A DNA stretch of 64,000 bases from Microthyrium microscopicum (lineage: Eukaryota), in assembly GCA_010405405.1 (NCBI GenBank), contig MU004242.1:915769-979768 (forward strand), in the 5' to 3' direction. Made by a program: the position numbers and the translations under genes. Of the stretch, positions 29,623 through 56,862 are shown piece after piece; the first letter of the stretch is position 1; every line of letters starts with the position of its first letter. The notes below the pieces were generated by a model, which saw only the letters and a list, made by a program, of their open reading frames with translations, did no database searches and was not told where the DNA came from.

Positions 29623-30907
29623 ATGTCTGAAAAGTCTTCTCGTCCAGTCTGGTTAATGTTTACGACTTACCGAATCCAACAAAGCTGCTGTACAACACCC
29701 ATCTTGACGCTTACGAATTCAACGATTTCCCTAGAGATCACACTTTCATCCGCTTAAATGCCCAAGGTTTCAACAAAAGTTCCCTTCATTTTGCTCGCGG
29801 AGAAAACAGTGTCACGACGAGCCAGACTGAGGCATCATTCCACACCGCCCATTCTCTCGACAAGATTGCTCTACTCGTCGGCGTACGGCTACCATCTTCT
29901 CAATATTTCAGACCTTCCTGGAACCAACCCAAACCAACTGAACAGGATAAAGTTCCGTCCCAAGCAGGAAATCGCACCAACTCCGAACTTTTTCACATTC
30001 AAGACATTACGAAAGTCAACATACTGTCTCACGACCAGCACGCGCTAAGAGTTGTTTGTCGAGTTGTTCCTGTCGCGGAACGCAGAAAAAATTCGCAGCA
30101 TGAATCAGAGTTCTACGCATTAGTTAATCGAACGGCCGATGGACTGAGCGAAGCCCGTCGAGTGGATCCATGTGACGTCTTCTTTGCTCCTCAATATCGT
30201 GACGATTTGAGTTGCGGCAGTAAAAACAGATTAAAAGTCTGGCGCAATATCTGTGAATCTGCTATTCGAGATTATTCACCAGTATCATTGTCGCAGAGAA
30301 CAGGTCAGAAAGGCCACATTTCAACCATTTCGCCCGCCTGGCACATTTCGATAGATGATCTGATCCCTCCCATCGCATCTGATCGCGCCCACAGCACACG
30401 CTCTGAAAATTCCACACGAAGCCTTGCGACCCTCAACACTGCATCTCCAGTGTTACTACAGCATGGGGGTTCATTAGATGTGTCATCTGAGCGTGCTGCG
30501 ACTCAACAATCACCAATCCCTGCCAGCAGCGATCGCTTGACAGATTCTGAAAGTCTAGGAGGACTCAAAAGAATGTTGGATATATCAGATTTCAGTGCCT
30601 TTGATGCGGCGAAGGCCATAGCCGAACTTGAGGTATGTCTCTTATATCATGGGACCGCTCGAAACAAGGTGCTAATAATTGTATACAGGAGCACTGGCCA
30701 GGATTGAAATCGTTTCCAGGTCTAACGAATGACTCAATCTTCTTGCTTCACTGGGTTTTGCGAGAAACCAAAACAAGCGTGGAATGGTGCAAGCTGAAAG
30801 TTTTGCTTCTCGCGTGGGCACAGAATTCTTTCATGCCGGGCGACAACAGCGACGTCGCGGTACGAAAGCAACGACTCCAGAATGTTCTCATGGTCCTCAA
30901 TTCTTAG
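29623..30907 (+). pseudogene. Unknown family paralog 1; 5' end out of frame (pseudogene, sequence error or non-AUG start)
   Basis: Coding frame is open from 29631 (KLLYNTHLDAYEF...) but ATGs at 29623 and 29656 are in another frame; intron 30633-30688; homologous to the two following genes. Confidence 0.6.
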
Positions 30908-31500
30908 GGGTACAAACAAACAGCGATGTTCATGGGAAAGAGGCGTCGCTAATGGCCACCAGTGTACGAGGCTGGTACCGTTGCCAGGGACTTACTCTAA
31001 GGAGTACGTGCAGAAGAATCATCAACGAGGACTTAATATACTGGTAGAGAGAATTCACAAGTTGAGTTGTTAGAATAAATACTTTGTACCAATAGAATTG
31101 ATAAGTACATCCAGTTTTCCAGCCGGAAGTAAATCCAAGAGGCCTCACCTGATTGTCTGTACAACCTGACAGCCCGTCGATGCTATAGAAACCCGTGCCC
31201 CCCTCTCTGTCTCTTTCGTTGTCACGATTACCAGATGGCTCCTTAGCCATGGTAGTAGGCTTCGAAACATGGCCTCCGAAGATATTCGAGGTGAAAGGAT
31301 AACGTTGAGGTGGGCCTGCCGTTCTAGGCAAGGGCGATCGTCTAAACTGCCCAACTGCCTCGCGGCTTCCCCCAGTATCTAAGGCTCATATTACGTTGTC
31401 TATCGCGCTTTATGCGATTTTCGAGAAGCACATCCCCACCCCAGCATATCAACCTTCACTCGAATTTTTCATTTTTAACATTCCCAATTAAACACTCGGC

Positions 31501-33552
31501 ATGAATACAGCTGTCCCACCATATGTAAAGCCCTCGAGCAACAAACATGCTTTGGCCAAGCTCTTCTATAATTTCAACCTCGATGCTTATGCTGTGCCCG
31601 AGAAGAAGGACCAGCACATATACCTCCGCGTGCAAGGCTTCGTCAGCCAATTTCAGCACAAGCCCAACGTATACACAGTCCCCGATATTGAACCAAATCA
31701 AGCAGAGCTTGAGGCTCATGGAAGCTATGTCCAAGCACTTTGGGTGGGTGTGCGGCCAACACCTGCGCCAGGTTTGCAAAGAGGAGACCTGAGTTCTCAA
31801 CTCCTTGAAAGCCAAAAGAAGAAGGGTATCGGCAGCAAAAATTCAGTCAGAGACCTGATTGAATCTGAAGAAAGTGAGGCCATCAATATCATTGATCATG
31901 ATAGCAGCGCATTGCGCGTGGTAGTCAACCCTAACAGCCAACATGTACAATTCTTTGCGCTGGTCAATCCGAACAGCATTGGAATCTGCGAGACTATTCG
32001 GGTGCTCAGCGAAGAAGTTTTCTTTGATCCTCTGTATCGTGAAGATGCCTTGACCTCGCGGCATTCACGCGCCTTGCTATGGCCCGCTTTGACACTTGCG
32101 AGCTCTATGACTGAGGCGGCACAACAATTATTGATCCAGGAGATGGCGATTGGCAAACGACGTGAGGGGGACGATTTGAGAAGAGCCGAAGTCATGAATT
32201 GGAAGAAAATGCGCGAAGCCCAGCATTTAGAGCGTCGAGAAAGCCGAAGAGCTTCTACAACCCAGAAAGCTGCCCAAGAAAAAGAACCGGCTCGAGTAGA
32301 GAGACAGAGACTTGCTGAACAAAAGAGAGTAGCTAGCGCCCAACAGGCTACTGAAAAAGAGCGATTGGCTGAGGCTCAGAGGGTGAAATTTGCCGAATGG
32401 AATAGAGCTGCTCGAGCACAGCACACTGCTGAGAAGATGAAGATGGCTGAAGCACAAAATGCCCTTAAGGCTCATAAAGCGGCTGAGAAAAGGGAAATAG
32501 CTAAAGCGCAAAAGGCTCAGAAAATGGCGGAGAAGCAAACAGCTGCTACATCACAAATAGCTATGCTAGCGCAGATAGCTGCTAAGAAAGAGCAGCTTGC
32601 TACAGTACAAGAGGCTGCTAGAGCCCAAAAAGCTCTTGAAGATCAGAGAGCTAAGCTAGCAAAGAGAGAATTTGAGCTTGAGCTTCCGCAGCGTTTGAGA
32701 GTCAGCCAACTGGCAAAGGCTATGAGACGCGATTCAGAAAAGAATGCACGGCTCGTTCTGAAGGTACCTGAAAATTTCGACTTGTTCAGACCGCGTGATA
32801 CAAGCCAGGTATATGAGCTCCAGCATATCTTAGAATACTATGAGAGCAGGCCGACCTTGGAGTCATTTTGCAACATTCTGATCGATATCACTTCCTGTGA
32901 GAGTTCACTTCAAGGATTCGGTGGCTTCAAATATTTCGATGACCTTCAGCTTCTGCATCTGAGCTCTGATGCAGAAAAGATACTCCAAGAAATAGAAGTA
33001 AGTCATTTCCTGATTGCACTCTACTTTGGTCAGCCATTCACTAACAATTGTTAGCAAATTTGGCCTAGATTTCCTGGATCTCAAAACCTTGATCTGCAAA
33101 GTTTAGGCTCGCTGAGCTCTGCATTCAAAAGTCATCGTGAGTTTGTGCCATGGGACCAGATGAGAGCCGCCTTACTATTATGGGCAGTGTTATCTATCTC
33201 CCTACGAGGCAATGAACGGCGCATCATGCATAAGAACTGGCGACGAAGCCTTCTTTTGCTGATGCAAAGTCTGAATTCACTGTCACTGGTGTCTTTCTAT
33301 CACATGCGTGATATATTCAGTGGCATGTTCGAGCAAGCGGAAGCATGGGAGCATCTAAATGTCCATGATCGGCCTGAAAAAGACCATGAGCTCCATGAGG
33401 ATGAGCACCCTTCTGAGAGGAACGACTGCAGTGAGAGTGATTTTAGCAGCGAGAATGACGATGCTAGTGATGGTGATAAGAATAGCGAGAGGGAAGAGGG
33501 TAACGAATCTGAGGATGGTAGCGAGCAAGACGAAACTGTTGGTCTTGGATAG
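31501..33552 (+). CDS. Unknown family paralog 2, with long Ala/Lys/Glu/Gln coiled-coil linker and acidic tail
   Basis: KLFYNFNLDAY, FFALVNP, EVFFDPLYRED; intron 32998-33054; WP...VPWDQMRAALLLWA. Confidence 0.85.
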
Positions 33553-34051
33553 AACGATATCACCAATTGCTAAAAGTCCAGGAACACCATATGATTGAAT
33601 AATGGTGTGGAGATCAAGGGGGATATGTAGAGGGAAGCTGTCAACCCTGTTAGTTCATAGTAGTATGCATATGAGACAGTTAATTCTGTCAAAGTATCAA
33701 TATCTGCATATTTCTGTATCGTCACGGCGTAGTTGCTTGAAAGTTTTGCAGGACTCGATTGATTTGCTAAAATTTTGGGTGATTTATCATCGGGCATTAC
33801 AAAGTATATTTAACGACCTCCCCAGGTCCTGAGCTTGCCAAATCTATCTCACTCATTCCTAATCCGAGTTGTCTGCCGTCTTCCATGATATACAAATCCG
33901 TTTCCAAGAGCATGAGGGGTTTTCCAACAGTGTTGATAAGTCCAGCCATGCTTCATGCTCACCACCGCTAAGTAGCACAAGCTAATGTCTCAAGGTCTGT
34001 TTCCATCCGTCCATCCAATTCATCCGAACTCATGTTGTGCACTGGTTGCAA

Positions 34052-35302
34052 TCAAGACGCAATCCCTTGAGTCACCCGCTGCACATACTGGAGACGCAGC
34101 TTTCGCACTTCTGGATCAAACAAATTCTGGCCGTACTGCCGAGACGACCATTCCCATGCCAGAATGGTAGACTTCACGTCAGGCCACTGCAAGGTGATGC
34201 CATTCTCCCCCAGAGCAACGTGGAGATAGAGGAGGGTATTTGCATTCAGACCCTCTATCTCTCTAAAGGATGGCCAGCCAGCCTGCGAAATATCAGTATC
34301 GGGTGAACAAAGAGTGAACAGACATGAACGAACCAGGAATTCATCCAGTGCTTTGACAGCGTCAAAGATGGGTGAATTGATGTCGTATGGATTCGAGCCA
34401 AGTTTGGCCAGCTCAGTAAAATTGAGAGGAATGGCTATCTGGGCCTGCAACGCAACCACCTGATTGCGTAAAGTGTTATTCTGGCCTCGCACAGCATCTC
34501 CTTCATGTCGTGCGCTGTCTCTCTCATCTCGCAGACGGCCAACTTCGTCTTGTGCGGCACGTTCCGCGTCCCGCGCGCGAATAAGCTGAGCTTGAAGACG
34601 AATGATCTTGATAATCTGTTGGCCATATGTCGGGCTTGGCAAGGATATCTTCCAAGCGTCTGCTGCTATGCGTAGCCAGATATTAGCTCTTTGAGTGGTC
34701 CCCACGACATTATCATCGCGATACATTGGTAGAAGGAACACGTCCTCAAAGTCGAGCAAGCTAACAGTGCAAATGCCTCCAGGAGTTATTGGATTGTGCA
34801 AGGCGTATATGTAGAGATGGCCTTCGATTGGCAAGCACACTACCCGGCGCACTCGTTGTTGTGTGTCTAGTACGTTGGCAATCGTGATATCGGCAACGCT
34901 GAAGAGTCGAGGGTCTGACAATGACCCTGAGGATGAATCGATCTTCAGTGGTGATCTCAAGCTCGGCACTGAGGGTGGGGATCGTGGTCGACATTTGTTT
35001 GAGTCTTCCAGGGTCAGGCCGATGAGGTATGCAATTGAGCCCGGACCTTGCAGATTCCGCTCCGCTGCATTGAGAGGGAGAGGTGGATAGACATTGGTTG
35101 TAGACTTCAGCTTAGCATGACTGATGCGCAAGTATGTCATTACTGTGGGCATATGAGGCCAATCATACGCGTCCAGATTGTTATTGAACAGGAGGTTGCC
35201 AGCGATTCGACCATCTGACAGCACCCCATTAGTCACTGCCAGCTGACGAGCTGGGACTAGTGCAGCGGCTCGTGTTCGAGGCGTTATTCTGAGCTGTGCC
35301 AT
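34052..35302 (-). CDS. Unknown family paralog 3, with short coiled-coil linker
   Basis: LLFNNNLDAYDWP, IYALHNP, DVFLLPMYRDD; in-frame 51-nt intron 34283-34333; WP...LQWPDVKSTILAWE. Confidence 0.85.
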   Translation of the reverse strand: MAQLRITPRTRAAALVPARQLAVTNGVLSDGRIAGNLLFNNNLDAYDWPHMPTVMTYLRISHAKLKSTTNVYPPLPLNAAERNLQGPGSIAYLIGLTLEDSNKCRPRSPPSVPSLRSPLKIDSSSGSLSDPRLFSVADITIANVLDTQQRVRRVVCLPIEGHLYIYALHNPITPGGICTVSLLDFEDVFLLPMYRDDNVVGTTQRANIWLRIAADAWKISLPSPTYGQQIIKIIRLQAQLIRARDAERAAQDEVGRLRDERDSARHEGDAVRGQNNTLRNQVVALQAQIAIPLNFTELAKLGSNPYDINSPIFDAVKALDEFLVRSCLFTLCSPDTDISQAGWPSFREIEGLNANTLLYLHVALGENGITLQWPDVKSTILAWEWSSRQYGQNLFDPEVRKLRLQYVQRVTQGIAS

Positions 35303-36154
35303 GGTATTGAAGTTCCAGTGGCAGAGTATGAGGGAATAGGGGAGTGTAGGGAGAATAGAGCACTCTTGCAAATAAAATGGGTGTGAGAATCTAGTTAAGT
35401 AAGTTAGAGACGAAGGGCTGAAATTAAGGTGCAAAAAGTAGGCAGTTAACTTCTTTTACCTTCGAAATATTTCTAAGGCTATTTGTGCTAAATAATCCAC
35501 GTGCCTAGGTATGTATGCATGTGGCTCTTTCCTTTAGTATGGAAAGAGGAAGGGAAGGAAAGAGCCTAGCAACATTAGCCAAGCATAGAGTTGGAAGGTA
35601 CGACGAGTCTTCGTACCAAGTGAGGGAGTAGCCACCGGTGGGCACCAGTTCTGGCAGGAACTGTGGGACTGTGCTTTAAGGTCAAATATCGAAGATATTT
35701 TGGCCATGTCATATCAATGCAGGTTATGTGATCCTCATCCTGGAATGAGGTTGGCAGAGGCAGGGGAGATTGAGGTTTTCTGTGAGATGGGCTGAGTTGC
35801 ATGAAGTGAGGGTAGAGACCCGAGAAGTGTGGGCTGTGATGATCGTTAGCAGATGGTTGAGACTCGAATAGATAATACATCACAGACTTCATGTTGACTG
35901 TTGAGCACGGCCAATATAGCATCCTCTAGGCGATCATAGTGGACACACACCGCTGACACTGGCTATTTTCTGTAGCGAGCGTCCATGAGAAGCAAAAGAC
36001 TGAAGAGCAACAAAGTCTTCTCGGAGGAAGGAAGATGGGAAGAGAAGTGTGGTAGAATTAGAGGAGCAAAGGCCGTGGTGATGTAGCATTGTGAGCCTAG
36101 AGGTTCTTTGAGGCAGTGAGAATTAGGCATCTCTACTCCGTCACTTCAACTCAG

Positions 36155-37873
36155 CTACTGAGGATCCCGTGAGGTCTTGGAAAGCATCCCACTCCCATTT
36201 GAAAAGCTGAACAGACTGTCCCTCGACTTTGAGAACTCCTCACTCTTCCTATCCGTCCACGCCATCAGCCCAGGTAACGGATTCGGGACCAGAGACTTCT
36301 TGAATACCGTTTTCCTCAACTTGATATTAGCAACGTGCATTACGGCGGCCATGTGGCGCCACCCAGGTATTCCAGGCGGAAATACCAAGTACAGACGTTG
36401 CTGTTGGTCTGGATCGGGCCGAAATTTGTCGTGATACACTTTCTTGGACGCAACGTGCAGTCCCTCGAAGATACGTTTGTGTACTTTGCGAGAGATGCTT
36501 TGAAATGCCTTGGGTATTCCTTCGATCTCTTGTAGATCGTCGAGAGGTTCGTAGCCCAGTGAGAGGTAGCTGACTTTGGCAGTGTTGAGCAGGGACATTG
36601 TTCCGTATATGAGCAAGTCAGTGATACCTTTTGGTGATCCTGGAGCGGCAACGTATGGGTCCAGATGGTAGCCCTTTTCTGCGCCGAGTAATCGCAAGGC
36701 CGCAAAGCCGTTGGGAAGACCACATCGATCTGTGGTATATATGTAGGTCATGAGCTCTGGCAATGCGAACGGATCGTATACCGTGATGTAAGCTTGTGGG
36801 CGACCAGACTCATTTCTTTCTTCCCGCCAGGCGTCGTATACATCAACAAGCTGTTGTTGTAGAATTACATCTTTTCCAAGAGCGGGTGTATAGACTTCGA
36901 GTTTGAGGCCGTCTCTTTTTGAGTCCAGGAGATTTCGAGCGGTTCTCGTTATTGATTTGCCAGCGTTGCTGTGAAGAACGGGATTCGTCATTGGATTGAG
37001 AACTCGCTCGAATGCGAAGCACATGGTGGTATACTTCTGGGCTCTCGCATACTCGACAAAAGTCTTTCCAGCTCCAAGGAATGCGAGTCCTAGGCCTGCC
37101 TTCTTCCGAAACTTCTCGAATTCTGCAAGGACAAATGGGAAGAGACTTGGAGGGCAAAGTGGATCTCCTCCAACGACCGCGATCTTGTTTTTGATCTTGT
37201 AATACAACGCAGCTCTTCTGTCTTTGGTGATAAAGAATACATAGCTCGGATCCAGGATCCCCATATGAGATACGCGACCATGTTTGAAAATCAATTCTTG
37301 AAGTGAAGCCAATGCAGTGAAATCGTTCAAGTCAAAAGTCTCCCGGCTTAGGTCCTTGGGTTTTTGCTCTTTCATTGACTTCTTCTCTTCTTTAGAAAGC
37401 TTTGGAATTGTCTCTCCAGCCTGCTCAAACTCGTTAATAAGACTGGGATCTGGTGATTCATCTTCCTCTTCTTCGATTGGAATGTTAGCAGCTTGGGGGA
37501 GCTTGACAAAGGCCACTCGATCAACCAAGTTGAGAGAATCCCCATACCTCTTTGGGTCTTTGACTAAGCCATTAGCCAAATCGCCACCTAGCTGTTCATG
37601 AAAGAGCTTTGCTGGTGCTTTTGGAGGCTTTGGGGCTTTGGGTGTTTTGACTTTGGCTTGCTTCGATGCTTTGGTACCATTTGTCGGTGTTGGGCTAGAC
37701 TCGGTCTTGGTATCCGAAGTATAAATTTTTGGGTCTTCAAGCGTTCCTGTGTCGTTGCTTGTAGTTGTAATCGAAGTGCTCTCCAGGTCAGAAGGGTTTG
37801 TGATAGTTATAATTGGAGCAGGAAAGGCAATATCAGGAACGATATCTTGGATACTAGAATCAGGCATTGACAT
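36155..37873 (-). CDS. ergS: Free-standing DUF2156 / LPG_synthase_C aminoacyl-tRNA transferase, ErgS-like (putative ergosteryl-glycine synthase)
   Basis: HGRVSHMGILDPSY, AVVGGDPLC, GFAAL, GITDLLI, LSLG, K..YHDKFRP; disordered N-terminus and no fused AspRS domain. Confidence 0.7.
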   Translation of the reverse strand: MSMPDSSIQDIVPDIAFPAPIITITNPSDLESTSITTTSNDTGTLEDPKIYTSDTKTESSPTPTNGTKASKQAKVKTPKAPKPPKAPAKLFHEQLGGDLANGLVKDPKRYGDSLNLVDRVAFVKLPQAANIPIEEEEDESPDPSLINEFEQAGETIPKLSKEEKKSMKEQKPKDLSRETFDLNDFTALASLQELIFKHGRVSHMGILDPSYVFFITKDRRAALYYKIKNKIAVVGGDPLCPPSLFPFVLAEFEKFRKKAGLGLAFLGAGKTFVEYARAQKYTTMCFAFERVLNPMTNPVLHSNAGKSITRTARNLLDSKRDGLKLEVYTPALGKDVILQQQLVDVYDAWREERNESGRPQAYITVYDPFALPELMTYIYTTDRCGLPNGFAALRLLGAEKGYHLDPYVAAPGSPKGITDLLIYGTMSLLNTAKVSYLSLGYEPLDDLQEIEGIPKAFQSISRKVHKRIFEGLHVASKKVYHDKFRPDPDQQQRLYLVFPPGIPGWRHMAAVMHVANIKLRKTVFKKSLVPNPLPGLMAWTDRKSEEFSKSRDSLFSFSNGSGMLSKTSRDPQ

Positions 37874-39366
37874 TGTGTGAAGAGATAGAATGAGCTTGAA
37901 CTTGTCTGAGATAAAATAGGCCAGTAAGCTTGCAGAGATGCGATGGCAAACAACGGTAATCCTGGATTTGTGATGATCCGAATTATAGTTGTTACGCGGT
38001 TTATATAAAAACGACCTACTAGTAGGTAGTACACGTGTGGTTATTTCGCTTGGAGACTGCAAATCTTACATTGAGGCTGAGTTCGGAACAGCTGTTGTAA
38101 TAATTGGTTGGAATCTCCCAATCGTCTATAAAAAGTGTTAAACCTGGTGCCTATTTGACTCCTACAATGGCCAAATAGGATAAAGTCTGCGCCAGGATTT
38201 CCAGGCAGATTTAAACACGAGTGTAAGGGGAAGCGTACTAAGCCAAACTGGTGGCAGTTGACGAATTGCTTGCCGCAGCAAGAAATTCTAGCTTACATGC
38301 ATGAAAACACCAGGATTGATACGCTCCTGCTATCCCGATTTGTCGCTTTAGACGAAAGCATTGCCCGTTGCTACAACGTTGATCTAGAAGAGGGAAGTTA
38401 TGTGTAGTAAGACATGATATGAGCTGCATTGCGCCATTTGCGCGTCGCCCATCCAAAGCGCTGGAAACTATAGCCACTTCTCGTCATAAAATGCGATGGG
38501 AGACATCACATTTGATGGGGCCACGACATGTATTATCGACCGAATACAAGGCTTTATTCGATCACCAGCGCTGCTGAGCACCTGACAAGTTTTCTTGTAC
38601 TTGTTAATGTAGACCTGCGGACTCGGTTTTCCTTTGGGCTAGGACTTCACTGTGAACCGGGTCTGGGTGTTTTTGGGCCAAAGAAGATATGCATTAGAGA
38701 AGTCTATTTGGAGGGAAGGTAGCAGGTCTGACGATAAAGGAGGCGATTCACAATGAGGAGCAAGAGTGAAAGGATGTCTACACTTGGAGTTGAAGCAGAT
38801 TTGTAGGTTGAAGACTGGAGAGTCGAGAAACTGAAAACAGGAACGAAGCAACAGGTCAACTGTCAACAGCTTGTAGCGTGCATGGGCCACATCAAAGTCT
38901 GTGCGTGTGTTGTTCTTGGGTAAGCGCTTTGCCGCTGCTCTCTTCTTGATTGTTCAATCTTTCTTCGATATTTCTTGCAATCCTTCGAATCCTGCCCAGG
39001 ATAATGGATTACAGTATCAACGGATCGCAAAGCAACGGTCATCCCTTTGATAGCTTTGATCGCCATGGGTCTTGGGAGGGGGAGTCGAGTCTTGTCTGGA
39101 GCATACATCCCCTTTCGCCCAAAGCGGTTACCACTGGAGGTAGGCAGAAGCCATCCAGGCTTCACAGCCACCACGTCTTACCGCTACTCTAGGCTACTTA
39201 TCGTGACTCGATAGTCATGTCGAAATCATTCCTTCTGTTGCTATCTTGTGCATCGAATAGACGTATAAAATGATCCCCGACCCTTGGTCTTGGTTACTTC
39301 TCTGATTCAACTACTGCTACTCCCACTTGTAGCTTTAGCATTGTCCTATCTTCTCTAGAACTCGCC

Positions 39367-42300
39367 ATGCCTTCGATTCAGCTGAATATCTCAAGAGTCC
39401 GTGATGGGAAACCATCCGACTTAATCACATACTTCAATGAGCTTCGAGAGGATCATTCCGACACTGCTGTCTACCAATCTTTTTCCAATGCTGTGGGAAA
39501 TGAAGAATTGCGACCAGGACTCTTCAGTATCATCTTTTCCTGGATGAAATCCATCGAAATCGTCGCTCTTTGCCTTCAATCCGAGAAATCGCAGTTCATT
39601 CGCAGGCAAGCCATCAAGCACTTTGGAAGAGCACTCGCCAAGCCTAAAGAATGGGAATCTGCGTGGCGAGCAGTTGGTGGATCTCAAGGTTTGGTAAATC
39701 TTTTTTCCAGAATCTCTGTTCTAGAAGTCAAGGCCTTGTCTGGCGCCATTGGTCGTTGCAACCGAGGCCAACATGACCTGACCAAGCGTGAGACGGTGAT
39801 AGAGGAACTTGTACATGCTCTAGTTCCATCGCATTATGGATCGCGTCTTCAAAGTCAGGATAAGCGACCAATTCAGCATCACTATGGCCGTATGGTGACA
39901 GCTTGCTCTTCTTTATTTGTTGAGACCTTACTCAAGACGGAGGACAAATCCAATCCCTTGTTCCAGAAATTACCAACGCAAAGACTTATCAGAACTCATC
40001 CCAATATTTTACAGGAGCGAATCCTTGAAACCATCACTGGGTCTGGTCCATCAGATCGGAATATCAATGATTATGTGATAGCATTCACTCATACGGAGCC
40101 ACCAAAAGCAACAGCTGATCCCAAAATATCTGCCTCCATGGCTTTTGCTGAGAAAATGCTACATATTCGTCTGGAGAGACTGGAAACTGTCCCTGAAGAT
40201 AAAAGCTGGCCTACCTTTTGGGGATTTTCGGAAACCGATCTCTTCAAGTCTCTCTTCCGCCGTTACACCAAGAAGAAGCTTCCTGAAGCTAAGATTCATG
40301 GACTCATTCTTCTGACACTGCGTTACATTGAACTCAAGCCAGACAAGAAACAAGACTTCAACTCAGGATATCCTGTTACTTCTCTGTGGCACACCATTCT
40401 TGAAAAGTGGAAAAGATTACCCGAGTTCTATGGCGATGCACTACAACTTGCTTTTCGACTTGAATTGGGCGGATCCCAAAGGTCACTATGTCAAGACTTT
40501 TTACGAGCCTCCCAACATCTCAAACTAGAAGGAGAGCGAAGATGGACACTCTTCCAGCTATTTTGTCTTCGCACCCCCAAAGTTGAGATCGACTTAAGCA
40601 CCACGAAGAGCTTCAAACCATTGGCAAAGATTCCTTGGTCTGTCGAGTTTTTCTACTACCTAGAGAAAGATCATTCCCTCGCTATATTAAAAGCTCTTTA
40701 CGCCATAAACAAGGAGTTCTCTTTCCTTAATGCTTCACACAGGAATACCATCCTCACCACCCAAGACATTCAATCACAAAGAAACTTCAACGCACTACTT
40801 CTCATCACAATACTTGAACGCGGATCGTATCCATCTCTTGAGCGTGCGGAGAACATGGTCAATGAACTGAGGAAGAAGGCCGCAACCTCCAAAGAACAGC
40901 CAGACAGAGCCGAGTTTGCAAAGGCCGCCGCGGATCTCGCCATAGCAAGCGGCGACCTGGATCTGTATGGCGATCTGATCACATGGCAGCAACGATATGT
41001 GAGAGACCCACTCACAGTGAAGGCAATCTTCTCACACAATGCTGTCGCGACCGCCGAAGGAATAGAGCTTTTGTCCGGCATGCCAAAGCCGCTGCCGCAG
41101 GATCTCACGCTGTCAGAGGCTGCGACCACAGTCAGTAAAGCCAATGAGATACTGCTCGAGTTCCAAAGCATAATGAAATTGGCCAAGAAGGAGCCATCTT
41201 TTCAGGCATACGACTGGCACGGGGTGTCGTCATTATTTGGATCGGCCCTCAGTGAAAGACTCGTGCAGACTCAGGAATTCCAGAAGAATATCAAACATTC
41301 AGAGTTAGACCTATACAGTGCCATATGGGTCGGAACACTTGACATGCTTGGAAGTGTAAATTCCGATTTCCTCCACCAAGCTCGCGGCACGATGAACGCT
41401 ATTTTCAAGACTTTGCCGCCTAGCGCTATAGCTACTGCTAGCAAAGCAATGCTACAAAACGGTAGCGAGCGTCGCAAGAGACAAGATCGACAGCCTGAGG
41501 ATGATACCCTGGAGATCATTTCCTACGAGATTCTCCTACAGCTCGCCAAAAGCGATAAGCCTGAACTGGCACAGCGACTAGTCCTTCAAACCATTCTCGA
41601 TCGACCAGATGCTAGCTCTTGGCACCGGTTGTTGCTTTCACCAGGATTCATGAAGAAGCTCTCGGCCAACGATGCACAGCGAATGTTGCTGGCCTTCGCC
41701 ACCGCTATCGGGGAGAAACTGGAAGAGCAATCATACGTTAAAGTAGGCGAAGCAGCCCCAGCTCGCTCTGCACCGCCTCAGTCTTTGGTCAAAGTCACGA
41801 CTGTCAAGTATCTTGCACAACTTCTGGACAATGCCGAGTTCATTTCGGCCGACGCGGCAATCGATGTTCTGGTTGAATTGTTCAAAGCTGGCACTCATCG
41901 AGATATCCGTCTTGCCACTCTCGACAGTCTTCTTAGCCTGCTCAACAACATATGTGGTGGATCGGATGACAGCTGGAAATCGAATCCACAAATGGAAAAG
42001 ATCTTATTCGCCTTAGATACCGTTGTGCCTGTAATCGGTAGCATCAACGAAAATCGGCCACCTAGTGCCGCGGATTGGGCCGAAGCTAAGGAAACAGGGA
42101 CTCTTCCTAGCATTGTTGATGCCTCGCTGGTCATCCCGCCTTTGATGAATGCCGTATTTGCTGCTTGTTCCAATCATTCTAGATACAAGAATCTGGCGAA
42201 GCTAGCTGATGTTTTCGTCTCCCGATATATCGTACCCACGGTTGCTCACTCCAAAGCAGAACATACGAAGTGGCTCACCTTGTTCCTAGTCAAGTACAAT

Positions 42301-43392
42301 CCCCACCTCACCGTGAAGGACATCCCATCAACTCCGCTCAGTGTAGAGATCTGGCACTGGTCTCTGCAAAACTACTGGAAATACATGCCTCAGACCGTGC
42401 TGGACGATTACAACAAGCACATTGTCATGACTATCGCACCATCGTCCTCTCTCACTGAGTTTAATCGTTCCCTAAAAGATGACATTGATGTTCGAAATAC
42501 GCCCGAAGTCCAACACTGGCTCTCTGTGTACGGCCAAGATTCATCCACCGCATCCTCCCGCGCCACGGAAACCCAATTCCTGCTAGAGCACGCGCATTTT
42601 GGCTACGAATCGTCTGTAGTAACCGATGGCATCTCTTTCAACCATGTGCGAGACATTATCAATTCCCATGCGGAGCTATTTCTTGACGGACCGGAAAGGT
42701 TTAGGCGTGTCTGGTCTATACTTGCCGAAGACTGCTCGCCTTCGAAGAAAGGTATTTTCCAAAACGATAGAGTACTATCTCGGACTCATTTTGCGGCGTG
42801 GCAAACAACCGGGAAAGTCATATTGGAAGATCTAATTGAGCTCGTGGCCACTCGCAAAAGAAAGGATCCGCGTAGGATCCTTCCATCAACGCTTAAGCCA
42901 CGATTGCATCTGTTACCGTACCCGTATCACCCTGAGCCGGCGCAGCTTGAACAGGAGTGCAGTGCGCTGGCAGGCGAGCTAGAAGGCTTGTTAGTTGAGC
43001 TACTCAAAGGCCAAAATAACGCCCTTCGCTGGCCAAAGATTGCCGAGGACGCTCGTACTGTTTCTAGCTTTCTCGTGACAGATGAGGAACGTATTCAGGT
43101 TGCAATTTGCCTTGGGAGCTCGATTGGGAGGCTTGATACTGAGGCCAGTTCGGAGAGAATTGCTCTTGACCTGGTCAAACTTTCGGTCGCTTTCTCGCTC
43201 ATGGAAAACCGCACACAGTACTTCAAGAAGACACCTCAAGCTAATTTCTCTCCAGCCAAACTGAAGCTTATCGAACAGTTAAAGGAGTGTGCGAGGCTTT
43301 GGGAGAAGCACTCTGATGAAGGCGTTCGAGACATGGTATTCAGATGGAAGGACGATCACCAAGATCTCTGGACTAAACTCATGAAAGCTTAG
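39367..43392 (+). CDS. Large intronless hypothetical protein (1341 aa), probably alpha-helical solenoid
   Basis: 4-kb stop-free ORF with gccATG context and upstream TATAAAA at about 39264; Leu-rich helical pattern; no catalytic motif recognised. Confidence 0.85.
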   Translation: MPSIQLNISRVRDGKPSDLITYFNELREDHSDTAVYQSFSNAVGNEELRPGLFSIIFSWMKSIEIVALCLQSEKSQFIRRQAIKHFGRALAKPKEWESAWRAVGGSQGLVNLFSRISVLEVKALSGAIGRCNRGQHDLTKRETVIEELVHALVPSHYGSRLQSQDKRPIQHHYGRMVTACSSLFVETLLKTEDKSNPLFQKLPTQRLIRTHPNILQERILETITGSGPSDRNINDYVIAFTHTEPPKATADPKISASMAFAEKMLHIRLERLETVPEDKSWPTFWGFSETDLFKSLFRRYTKKKLPEAKIHGLILLTLRYIELKPDKKQDFNSGYPVTSLWHTILEKWKRLPEFYGDALQLAFRLELGGSQRSLCQDFLRASQHLKLEGERRWTLFQLFCLRTPKVEIDLSTTKSFKPLAKIPWSVEFFYYLEKDHSLAILKALYAINKEFSFLNASHRNTILTTQDIQSQRNFNALLLITILERGSYPSLERAENMVNELRKKAATSKEQPDRAEFAKAAADLAIASGDLDLYGDLITWQQRYVRDPLTVKAIFSHNAVATAEGIELLSGMPKPLPQDLTLSEAATTVSKANEILLEFQSIMKLAKKEPSFQAYDWHGVSSLFGSALSERLVQTQEFQKNIKHSELDLYSAIWVGTLDMLGSVNSDFLHQARGTMNAIFKTLPPSAIATASKAMLQNGSERRKRQDRQPEDDTLEIISYEILLQLAKSDKPELAQRLVLQTILDRPDASSWHRLLLSPGFMKKLSANDAQRMLLAFATAIGEKLEEQSYVKVGEAAPARSAPPQSLVKVTTVKYLAQLLDNAEFISADAAIDVLVELFKAGTHRDIRLATLDSLLSLLNNICGGSDDSWKSNPQMEKILFALDTVVPVIGSINENRPPSAADWAEAKETGTLPSIVDASLVIPPLMNAVFAACSNHSRYKNLAKLADVFVSRYIVPTVAHSKAEHTKWLTLFLVKYNPHLTVKDIPSTPLSVEIWHWSLQNYWKYMPQTVLDDYNKHIVMTIAPSSSLTEFNRSLKDDIDVRNTPEVQHWLSVYGQDSSTASSRATETQFLLEHAHFGYESSVVTDGISFNHVRDIINSHAELFLDGPERFRRVWSILAEDCSPSKKGIFQNDRVLSRTHFAAWQTTGKVILEDLIELVATRKRKDPRRILPSTLKPRLHLLPYPYHPEPAQLEQECSALAGELEGLLVELLKGQNNALRWPKIAEDARTVSSFLVTDEERIQVAICLGSSIGRLDTEASSERIALDLVKLSVAFSLMENRTQYFKKTPQANFSPAKLKLIEQLKECARLWEKHSDEGVRDMVFRWKDDHQDLWTKLMKA

Positions 43393-53593: not shown

Positions 53594-55221
53594 GTTTGAG
53601 CACGATCGTTCAAAAGAGCGTAAAATTTAGCGTCTAGTGAAAGAGGCCCAACTCATTCAGCAAAGTTGGGGATCACAAAAATAAATAGAAGGCAACCGTA
53701 ATTCTTCTCTTTCACGCCAATACTACGGTGAAACTACAAGAGTGGAAGTGGTGTTGATGGGGGCTATTTCGAAAGTAGAAATACGATATTAATAAAAATG
53801 TGGTACATGAGTAGGATTCTATATGAAGATTGAATAGTCTATATTACCCAATCATGTAAATTCTAGGTGGCAAACCATCATTGCTCCATTGTGAGCGATA
53901 CCTGCCAAGGAAAAGTTTGATACCAATGCCTCTTCCCAGTAGTGTGTTAAATGAGCGGCCCCATAGCACCCATAATGGAATATCTGAGCACACGATGCTT
54001 TTGGGGCAATGTTGACGTGCAGCAAATACTAACCCGGAGCCATCTTTAATTACATAGCATCAAGATTGCATTCCAAGTCCTCAGACAATAGGTTGATTTT
54101 TCTCTGCAGTTATGCAAAGAGTGGGACCGGTTAATTTAAGACCACGGTAACTAGCAATAGAACCTTGACTTGATTGGCTGAATGCTCCAGAAGCTCGATG
54201 ACACAACAGGGAAAGATTGTCGCGAAAGGAGCTGTTTCGAATGTGCAATTGGAAGCCGCGTATAGTTTGCTGCCAATATTCCTCAGATGTTGGACGTAGC
54301 AATACTTGAGCTGTAGCTTGCAGCAATTCCATTACCTCCAATTGCTTTTGGCTTTATTCGCCTGATATTCCGCTTTTCTGAGGTACAACTTATGTGGCGT
54401 TCAATTTCATCCGAATCTGATCAAGAGCGGAAGTGACTTTCAGCGGATTACTGTAACTCAGATGGATGTAAGTTCACCGTGTCTGAGATGTTCCATTATA
54501 GCATAGACTAAATTATTGTAACAGCTATGCCATCCTCAAACTATAGAGTATCATGGACGTCGGTTGATTGTACATCACAGGAGATGTCAACGCCTGGGTC
54601 GGATCCTCGGCGATTGCTAAGCTCTATTTAGACAAAGTATCTTCTCGCTAATCTGATATTCAGCATATCTTTGGTGGAATCAGCAGGCAGCAATCCGAAA
54701 TTGGCAATTGGAGGCGAAAATATCTATCTTCGTGGTGGCTTTTGGGGGCTGAAAACCAGATCTGAGAAACACGGCCTATTGGAAAAGTATATCTTATAAT
54801 ACATTCCCCAGCCAGAATCAATTAGGTGATGATTCCTAAAACCGAACAAACTGGAAGCACTTGTTGAATTGCTGATTTCACTGGAAAATCGAGAAGCCGC
54901 ATTCCCCTTGGAAGGCGATTAATACTCCATCCCTCTTTGAAGGTGACTAATACTCCATTTCCCATCAAATGCGCCAGAACTCGAAGCATATTTATATTTT
55001 GACTAATGGAGCGCAACATCTTTTTGTCGCCCAATCATGTGTTTACTAACAAGTGAATAGGGGGCTTGTATGAACGGAAAGAACCTCCTGAAGAGCGAGA
55101 AATCACAACACCTCGACCTTCAGCAACTGCCCTCCATCGACCCCCCCACAAACCCACTCACCCTCAACCCAACTCAACTCGCCATCACCTCAACCAGCGC
55201 AACGGGGACGCATCTATCACA

Positions 55222-56862
55222 ATGGTCATCGACTCCTCAGTTGTCTTAGAGATTGAAGCAAAGAACGCTACTTCCAGCGCGACTAGGCACCAGGATCCTC
55301 TTCCGCGTCTAGAGCTCAACCGTAAACACCGTCTTACCAAGGACCTCACGCAAAAATGGAAGATATCACCGAGACAAAATCGGACACCCTTCTTCTTCCA
55401 TGTATCTAATGAGACCGGCCAACAATGCCCCGCGAATTCAATTGACCAAGGGTTCCAATTTCAGCGGCTACCGATCGAAATACAGTTTGAAGTCTTCAAA
55501 ATGTGCGACCAGCCAACTCTCTTTCAGCTGATGAGAACGTGCTCTTCGATAAGACCGGAAGCTTCAAGATTGTTCTGGTCGAATAAAGACGTTTGGTACG
55601 AATGCTCCTTCCTGTGGCTTGAGTACGAAGGGGCAAAGACTGGTCCTGCGCTGCACTGCCCTGACTTCGCAAAAAATGTTCAGGTAAGCTTAACATTCAT
55701 GTCTTCGCAATATTGGCCCGGCCGGCATTGAATTTAGAATGGTGTTTACTGCCAGCGCGCTAAGGTTTCTCTTGTCAATTCAATATGAACGGAAGAATCA
55801 GAGCTGACGAGTGAACAGCAGGTTGAGATCAAAGTTGATGGGAAGACACACCCATGTCCCGGGCTTTTTGAGCAGGATGACTCGCCAATACACGAAGATG
55901 ATGACGATATTCTTTGCTTTCACCGACGACTGCTAGCTACTACAGAACAAATACGCTTTTTCTGGAGCTCATTCAAACGCGTCTTTCCTTCATGTCGAAG
56001 GGTGATTTTTGACCAGCGAAGTCAAGCTTGCTGTTTGGATAGCTACATTGAGGTCATATCCGAACGACCGCCTACCATTGATTGCCTAGTGTCTACTTGG
56101 CCTTGTAGGGTTTCAGCAAGTAACCGCCGGCGTGCTAAGAAAGTGCTTTGGACCTTCAAGCCATGCGACCCCACATGGTATGCACTTTCAGGCTCATGGG
56201 AAAACAATCTTGTGGTGATGCCGCCAAAATTGTTCCGTGGTATAATGGGAAACTTTCAACACCAGTTATACTTGGATGATAGAATATGGAATGAGCGAGC
56301 TGCTCTTCGAATGCTTCGCTTGAGACGACATGAATGGTTCTACCACAGAGAACGCGGGCCGCAACTTGAGACATCCGAGAAATGGGGAATCGAGTGTCCC
56401 AACCCAGACTGCGACTTGTTTTTCGAATGCATTGGGCAATGGACCCAGCATGCTTGTGAGACAAGCCATGACCTTGACTATTCTCAAAAACCCTTGCGGT
56501 ATCTCGATATTTCAGGGTTTCCCGGCGATTGGGAAGCCACACTACGATTAATTTCGGAAGACCTTTTAAAGGTCGAAGTGCTCATCAGGCGCCAGGACAT
56601 CAAGAATTACTTGCTACATTTGGGACATGCAGCCAACGAGGCTATTACCTTCCAGGCTATGCAGCAACAGTTTGACACTGACCCAATATATGCGCACGAG
56701 ACATCGGCAAGAACGTCTCTGCTTGCGCAAGATTGGGCAAGCTCGTGGCTAAAGAGCCCAGAGGAAGTTATAGAGAAGCATTCTGATTGGCTCGACAAGG
56801 ACTTCCTACATTCCATCTCAGAGCGTTGGTCGAGACTGGTTTCGCCTGAGAAAGGAGTATAG
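55222..56862 (+). CDS. F-box-like hypothetical protein with a C2H2-like motif
   Basis: FQRLPIEIQFEVF...LFQLMRTCSSIR, intron starting 55684 (gtaagc) and ending near 55821, CPNPDC...WTQHACETSH. Start codon uncertain. Confidence 0.7.

Follow-up and report, generated by a model that had tools for sequence, protein, structure and literature searches.

An undescribed, fast-evolving protein family of filamentous ascomycetes and its three diverged neighbouring copies in Microthyrium microscopicum

Linked genes for highly divergent paralogous proteins are known from the doc-1/doc-2/doc-3 greenbeard locus of Neurospora crassa, which, in the portion of the paper available to us, shows inversions, duplications and products that mostly lack known domains; the DOC proteins have 828-920 amino acids (aa), with predicted transmembrane segments in DOC-1 and DOC-2 and an OmpH-like domain in DOC-2, and their alleles are polymorphic in populations (PMC4831770). 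The Neurospora spore-killer antidote RSK has 486 aa and no characterised domain, according to the accessible part of its description (bioRxiv 10.1101/2020.12.30.424869). Here we analysed a window of 64,000 nucleotides from the Dothideomycete Microthyrium microscopicum (contig MU004242.1, positions 915,769 to 979,768, forward strand), which contains a cluster of three spliced genes at 29623-30907 (+; gene 1), 31501-33552 (+; gene 2) and 35302-34052 (-; gene 3). The three genes are very diverged copies of an unnamed filamentous-ascomycete gene, apparently old local duplicates, and the family to which they belong is undescribed, widespread and very fast-evolving.

The N-domains of the three genes were compared pairwise, and all pairs were significant, with 29% identity over 196 aa between genes 1 and 3 (E 3e-19), 30% over 193 aa between genes 2 and 3 (E 3e-15) and 32% over 190 aa between genes 1 and 2 (E 1e-14). 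A preliminary description of this DNA had reported collinear motifs in the three adjacent genes (+,+,-) and taken them for diverged paralogs; every motif that it quoted was present at its place, and the comparisons above agree with paralogy. The C-segments were scored with a profile of 16 full-length outside homologues, which gave 27.2, 16.4 and 16.7 bits for genes 1, 2 and 3, compared with 1.4, 2.2 and 0.5 bits for the best of 100 shuffled versions of each; an earlier, broader profile had scored the C-segments of genes 1 and 3 and missed that of gene 2. The proposed shared C-domain is thus homologous in all three, but it is not a self-standing domain, being a piece of a helical family region of about 290 aa.

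A profile of nine sequences was then searched against 1.84 billion representatives at the 50% level, and 263 matches were obtained at E<=0.001, 133 of them at <=1e-10; the family-wide counts given here rest on the best 150 of the 263. Thirty matches were looked up, of which 13 carried a species name, and 12 of these 13 came from species other than M. microscopicum. The named genera (Westerdykella, Neocucurbitaria, Pyrenophora, Alternaria, Polychaeton, Ramularia, Aureobasidium, Bogoriella, Saxophila, Cyphellophora, Chrysothrix and Pyricularia) span, as we take it, four classes of Pezizomycotina. The usual family protein has about 490-510 aa. No Pfam family scored above cut-off in any of the 151 family proteins scanned, in keeping with the earlier statement that no known family could be assigned, and nothing was found on the family in the literature, although a member with a different gene name could still be described in subscription papers or in supplements not seen.

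The view that the genes are old and rapidly diverging was also borne out, both by birth-and-death in the M. microscopicum genome and by full-length comparisons over about 440 aa, in which Pyrenophora and Alternaria, two genera of one fungal family, were 21% identical and Pyrenophora and Cyphellophora 28%; at the 90% level, 27 of the 30 clusters looked up were singletons. Quick trees (128 of the 150 rows, and 26 rows) were poorly resolved, and clades of the Pleosporales members were not rejected by approximately unbiased (AU) tests (p 0.09-0.61). Outside this genome, the tree therefore fits both one very fast single-copy gene and several old paralogues. A C-region was linked in 60 homologues; 37 of them ended no more than 100 residues from the intron column, and 33 of these 37 continued with Val, as if read into a GT donor, which argues that the family intron is old.

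Each of the three genes is interrupted by a single coding intron, which falls on the same codon boundary in all of them. In gene 1 the main frame of exon 1 (29631..30632, +; 334 codons) holds the N-domain (about 29667-30269), a Ser-rich linker (30270-30602) and the start of the C-segment; a phase 0 GT..AG intron of 56 nt (30633..30688, +), at the position common to the family, separates it from exon 2 (30689..30907, +), with the remaining helical C-segment and the stop at 30905-30907. Exon 1 of gene 2 (31501..32997, +) encodes the N-domain (about 31531-32106), a long Ala/Gln/Lys/Glu-rich linker, for which a coiled coil is suggested by composition alone, and a C-segment starting at 32968, which continues after a phase 0 GT..AG intron of 57 nt (32998..33054, +) in exon 2 (33055..33552, +) up to about 33270 and is followed by an acidic tail; the product (664 aa) is identical to an M. 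microscopicum protein labelled hypothetical at NCBI. Gene 3 has its N-domain (about 35203-34652), a short helical linker (34621-34430) and the beginning of the C-segment (from 34363) in exon 1 (34334..35302, -), an in-frame, stop-free intron of 51 nt (34283..34333, -), and the remaining C-segment with the stop in exon 2 (34052..34282, -). Its spliced product has 399 aa, compared with 416 aa for the database protein, which retains the intron. The window proteins range from 399 to 664 aa, and their linkers are characterised here by composition.

The window cluster is transcribed. All three coding introns were skipped with GT..AG ends in the contigs of run X5, the RNA status of which was guessed by the tool, and were unspliced in the DNA runs X1 and X4; spliced RNA thus exists, at a level and under a condition that such skipping does not show. 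Three further introns, non-coding and spliced (35391-35459, 35566-35616 and 35834-35887, -), lie between the ATG of gene 3 and the upstream gene, and they belong either to the leader of gene 3 or to the trailer of that upstream gene; the spliced stretch before the gene 3 ATG contains 11 upstream ATGs and no long frame. The 5' intron proposed by NCBI for gene 1 was spanned unspliced by an X5 contig. Two database gene models are corrected in this way, that of gene 3 (intron retained) and that of gene 1 (splicing of the 5' intron not seen in the RNA contigs).

Gene 1 has a reading-frame problem at its start. The ATG at 29623, preceded by a pyrimidine-rich leader, is likely the ancestral start and opens a 44-codon peptide only (29623..29757, +); the main frame, with the N-domain, is shifted from it by one base. 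This main frame runs for 314 codons without Met, its first Met being codon 315, and contains at 29649 an in-frame CTG that has A at -3 and G at +4. The preliminary description, in which the cluster begins at 29623, had missed this shift. No indel in gene 1 was found in runs X1, X4 and X5. We consider a recent frameshift in gene 1 probable; initiation at the CUG at 29649 seems rather unlikely, and a start in an unseen upstream exon seems so to the same degree.

To find further copies in this genome, five single proteins and one outside homologue were used as queries, and the window and 11 loci of 10 kb were scanned in six frames with the profile. At least nine open and at least two broken N-domain frames were found. 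The three genes are adjacent, as the preliminary description had said of a local array, but the family is not restricted to the cluster, having other copies in the genome besides the homologues in other fungi. The open copies are the three in the window, four single-ORF (open reading frame) paralogues in a second tandem array on contig C4 (1,488,783-1,496,731; locus L034, 1284-9232), a dispersed one at C4:765 kb (locus L044, 4073-5647) and one at C2:1,780 kb. Each of the five C4 copies consists of one long ORF with the N-domain, then acidic and basic low-complexity tracts and a common beta-rich tail of about 35 aa, which was absent from the other proteins among the 150 scanned. Genes 1 and 3 were sisters in the quick trees (99 in the Shimodaira-Hasegawa-like approximate likelihood ratio test, SH-aLRT), and one clade of all nine local copies was not rejected by the AU test (p 0.53).

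The broken copies lie at C2:522 kb and C4:1,407 kb. In the former (locus L038, 3115-5300, -) TAG stands in place of the conserved Trp codon, while the C-segment and additional helical sequence are retained; the copy adjoins an AT-rich block with dinucleotide indices of the repeat-induced point mutation (RIP) type. Furthermore, a piece of about 300 bp, 68.5% identical to gene 1, lies directly behind a DUF6589 ORF inside a repeat that spans 8.7 kb or more, three of the four examined copies of which (loci L039 980-4927, L040, L041 and L042) are heavily RIP-like. DUF6589 is, we assume, a mark of Academ-type transposases; the passages of PMC5751038 available to us did not confirm this. The family piece was probably captured by a transposon, and the expansion in this genome appears to have proceeded by birth-and-death. 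The DUF6589 repeat also holds tandem arrays of about 84-98 bp.

The N-domain was modelled at high confidence and resembled known structures faintly, which makes it a good target for a new kind of binding module. The structure search gave weak matches to the Eaf3 chromo domain and to PipX, with sub-threshold Tudor/SH3 rows in Foldseek. As the likeliest solution, we read the domain as an SH3-like beta-barrel of small size, around which an N-terminal arm and a C-terminal helix would be wrapped, with putative strands at 77-85, then a variable insert of about 50 residues, 138-142, 151-155, 163-168, a short helix turn and 174-175. In barrels of this class the five strands include a beta2-beta3-beta4 meander and a short 3-10 turn, and beta5 pairs with beta1. 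The insert tends to be mildly basic, with a mean net charge of +1.95 and a positive value in 74% of the 77 sequences that matched. Over 150 sequences the most conserved polar residues were C163, R139, E69, R180, D181/D182, R190, D134, S115 and N24, and noisy covariation was seen for E69-R139, R190-G83/V140 and R180-L154; gene 1 has Ser in place of the conserved Cys and Leu in place of Trp81.

The usual protein of about 500 aa would be soluble and intracellular, with an N-domain of about 190 aa followed by a bundle of helices and, at the C-terminal end, a long helical hairpin; a hydrophobic N-terminal stretch, as looked for in a secreted effector, was found in only 2 of 157 proteins by a simple hydropathy rule and no dedicated predictor. 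The fold itself is predicted, and we infer the barrel topology, a non-enzymatic role in which the barrel binds a partner, either protein or nucleic acid, and its assembly into a larger complex through the helical parts. During birth-and-death in this genome, the surviving copies would have kept the N-domain and exchanged what follows it: in the window a Ser-rich, a long or a short helical linker with a bundle remnant of about 60 aa, and in the C4 copies an acidic/basic, presumably disordered region before the beta-rich tail. An intracellular, non-enzymatic binding or scaffold protein, multiplied here by birth-and-death with tail exchange, is the reading that we favour, tentatively and at a little under an even chance.

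The preliminary description had seen in the cluster the pattern of allorecognition, meiotic-drive or defence loci. A family acting in non-self recognition, spore killing or defence, with specificity carried by the N-domain and with copies, perhaps working as heteromers, that balancing or arms-race selection has diversified, would account for the extreme divergence, the many singleton clusters, the two tandem arrays, the broken copies and the shifting architectures; the linked, highly divergent doc-1/2/3 paralogues without known domains are a precedent, as far as the available text goes (PMC4831770), and a NOD-like receptor (NLR) gene of SesA-NB-ARC-TPR type (locus L035, 1-3585, -) is located some 8 kb away from the C4 array. 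Between this NLR and the array, however, lie genes for an rRNA dimethylase and an AP-endonuclease-like protein, among others, and no HET, NLR or toxin-like gene was present among the flanking ORFs scanned beside the window cluster. No HET, HeLo, SesA/SesB, patatin, gasdermin, STAND or NACHT/NB-ARC domain was found above cut-off in the 151 family proteins, nor HET, NACHT/NB-ARC, patatin or gasdermin in the scanned window neighbours; Atlas feature matches to SesA/PigL_N clusters reached 0.77, below the tool's bar of 0.9, and X5, the sole second sample covering the region, had no listed difference. Old, fast-diverging paralogues were thus confirmed and the link to allorecognition, drive or defence was not, and we regard a conflict role as possible but unlikely. 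More doubtful still is its full form, in which the N-domain fold would be new to the PDB, the family a subphylum-wide, fast-evolving non-self-recognition or drive class, the copies a specificity array with interchangeable assembly linkers, and gene 1 CUG-initiated or recently silenced. What is new here is the family and its domain.

A derived Tudor/chromo-barrel-type reader or nucleic-acid binder of chromatin or chromosomes was weighed as well, which would place the family among the fast-evolving proteins of the meiotic axis, kinetochore or telomere type. Chromosome-structure proteins typically combine fast evolution with a terminal helical hairpin, and the weak Eaf3 and PipX matches, the Tudor/SH3 rows, the mildly basic insert and the alternating acidic and basic tracts of the C4 copies point the same way. 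The profile and nuclear localisation signal (NLS) controls failed, which weakened this explanation: hhalign probability stayed below 1% against the BAH, PWWP, Tudor-knot and chromo domains of the genome (shallow templates of 1-7 sequences), and NLS-like motifs occurred in 34 of 157 proteins against 15 expected, with no extra enrichment over control ORFs (11 of 47 against 4.2). No aromatic residue stood at the Tudor-cage positions under our strand mapping, an AT-hook-like core was observed once against 0.31 expected, and no Tudor, chromo-barrel, PWWP, BAH or chromodomain Pfam family was present in the family proteins scanned; a chromatin role seems improbable to us. We give slightly less credit to an enzyme of undescribed fold, in which the invariant Cys/Arg/Asp/Glu set would form an active site and the helical regions would target or regulate it. 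The conserved polar residues and an insert-rich, loop-rich domain that could house a pocket suit such an enzyme, but conserved His is absent, the covarying pairs read as structural clamps, and gene 1 carries neither the Cys nor Trp81.

The window neighbours of the cluster are a sugar-transporter-family gene, an unnamed ORF, a lysylphosphatidylglycerol (LPG)-synthase-like gene and an unnamed ORF of 1,372 codons. The LPG-synthase-like gene, which is the one upstream of gene 3, is a long single ORF (36155-37873, -) and matches the phosphatidylglycerol lysyltransferase C-terminal domain (PF09924, E 2e-20), whose family is more familiar from bacteria. The 1,372-codon ORF (39274-43392, +) had no Pfam match at E<=0.001. 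A stretch of 41 bases at 38478-38518 had matches to other contigs in three of the DNA runs and may be a short repeat or a conserved element, and two long ORFs of 224 and 357 codons, side by side at 55057-56862 (+), resemble one unannotated gene.

Hundreds of filamentous-ascomycete proteins thus carry an unnamed domain without a Pfam family or a clear solved relative. Describing it adds a new domain family and, at low cost, a target for structural work, whether the domain is a far-derived SH3-like barrel or has a fold of a new type. With its fast evolution and fixed gene structure, the family is a candidate in recognition, meiosis or chromosome biology, fields in which undiscovered components can be expected. 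The genome, in turn, shows the remodelling of one gene, with nine open copies of differing tails, loss of the C-terminal hairpin, RIP-type decay and probable transposon capture.

Compared with the PipX N-terminal domain (PDB 2xg8/3n5b) and the Eaf3 chromo domain (PDB 3e9g), to which identities were 4-11% with scores at noise level, the family N-domain is about three times larger, with an N-terminal arm of about 60 residues, an insert of about 50 residues and a C-terminal helix. The match to WXG100/EsxA-type and other helical hairpins was generic and below the tool's bar for helices (13), and the corresponding part is absent in the window proteins. RSK, compared by its description in the accessible text, resembles the 490-510-aa form of the family in length and domain absence only, and no small poison gene was seen, though no search was aimed at one. 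Unlike the DOC proteins, with their 828-920 aa and transmembrane segments, the window proteins are shorter, soluble and not among the most hydrophobic rows; what the cluster shares with the DOC locus, as described in the part available to us, is a set of linked, highly divergent paralogues with inversions and duplications and largely without known domains.
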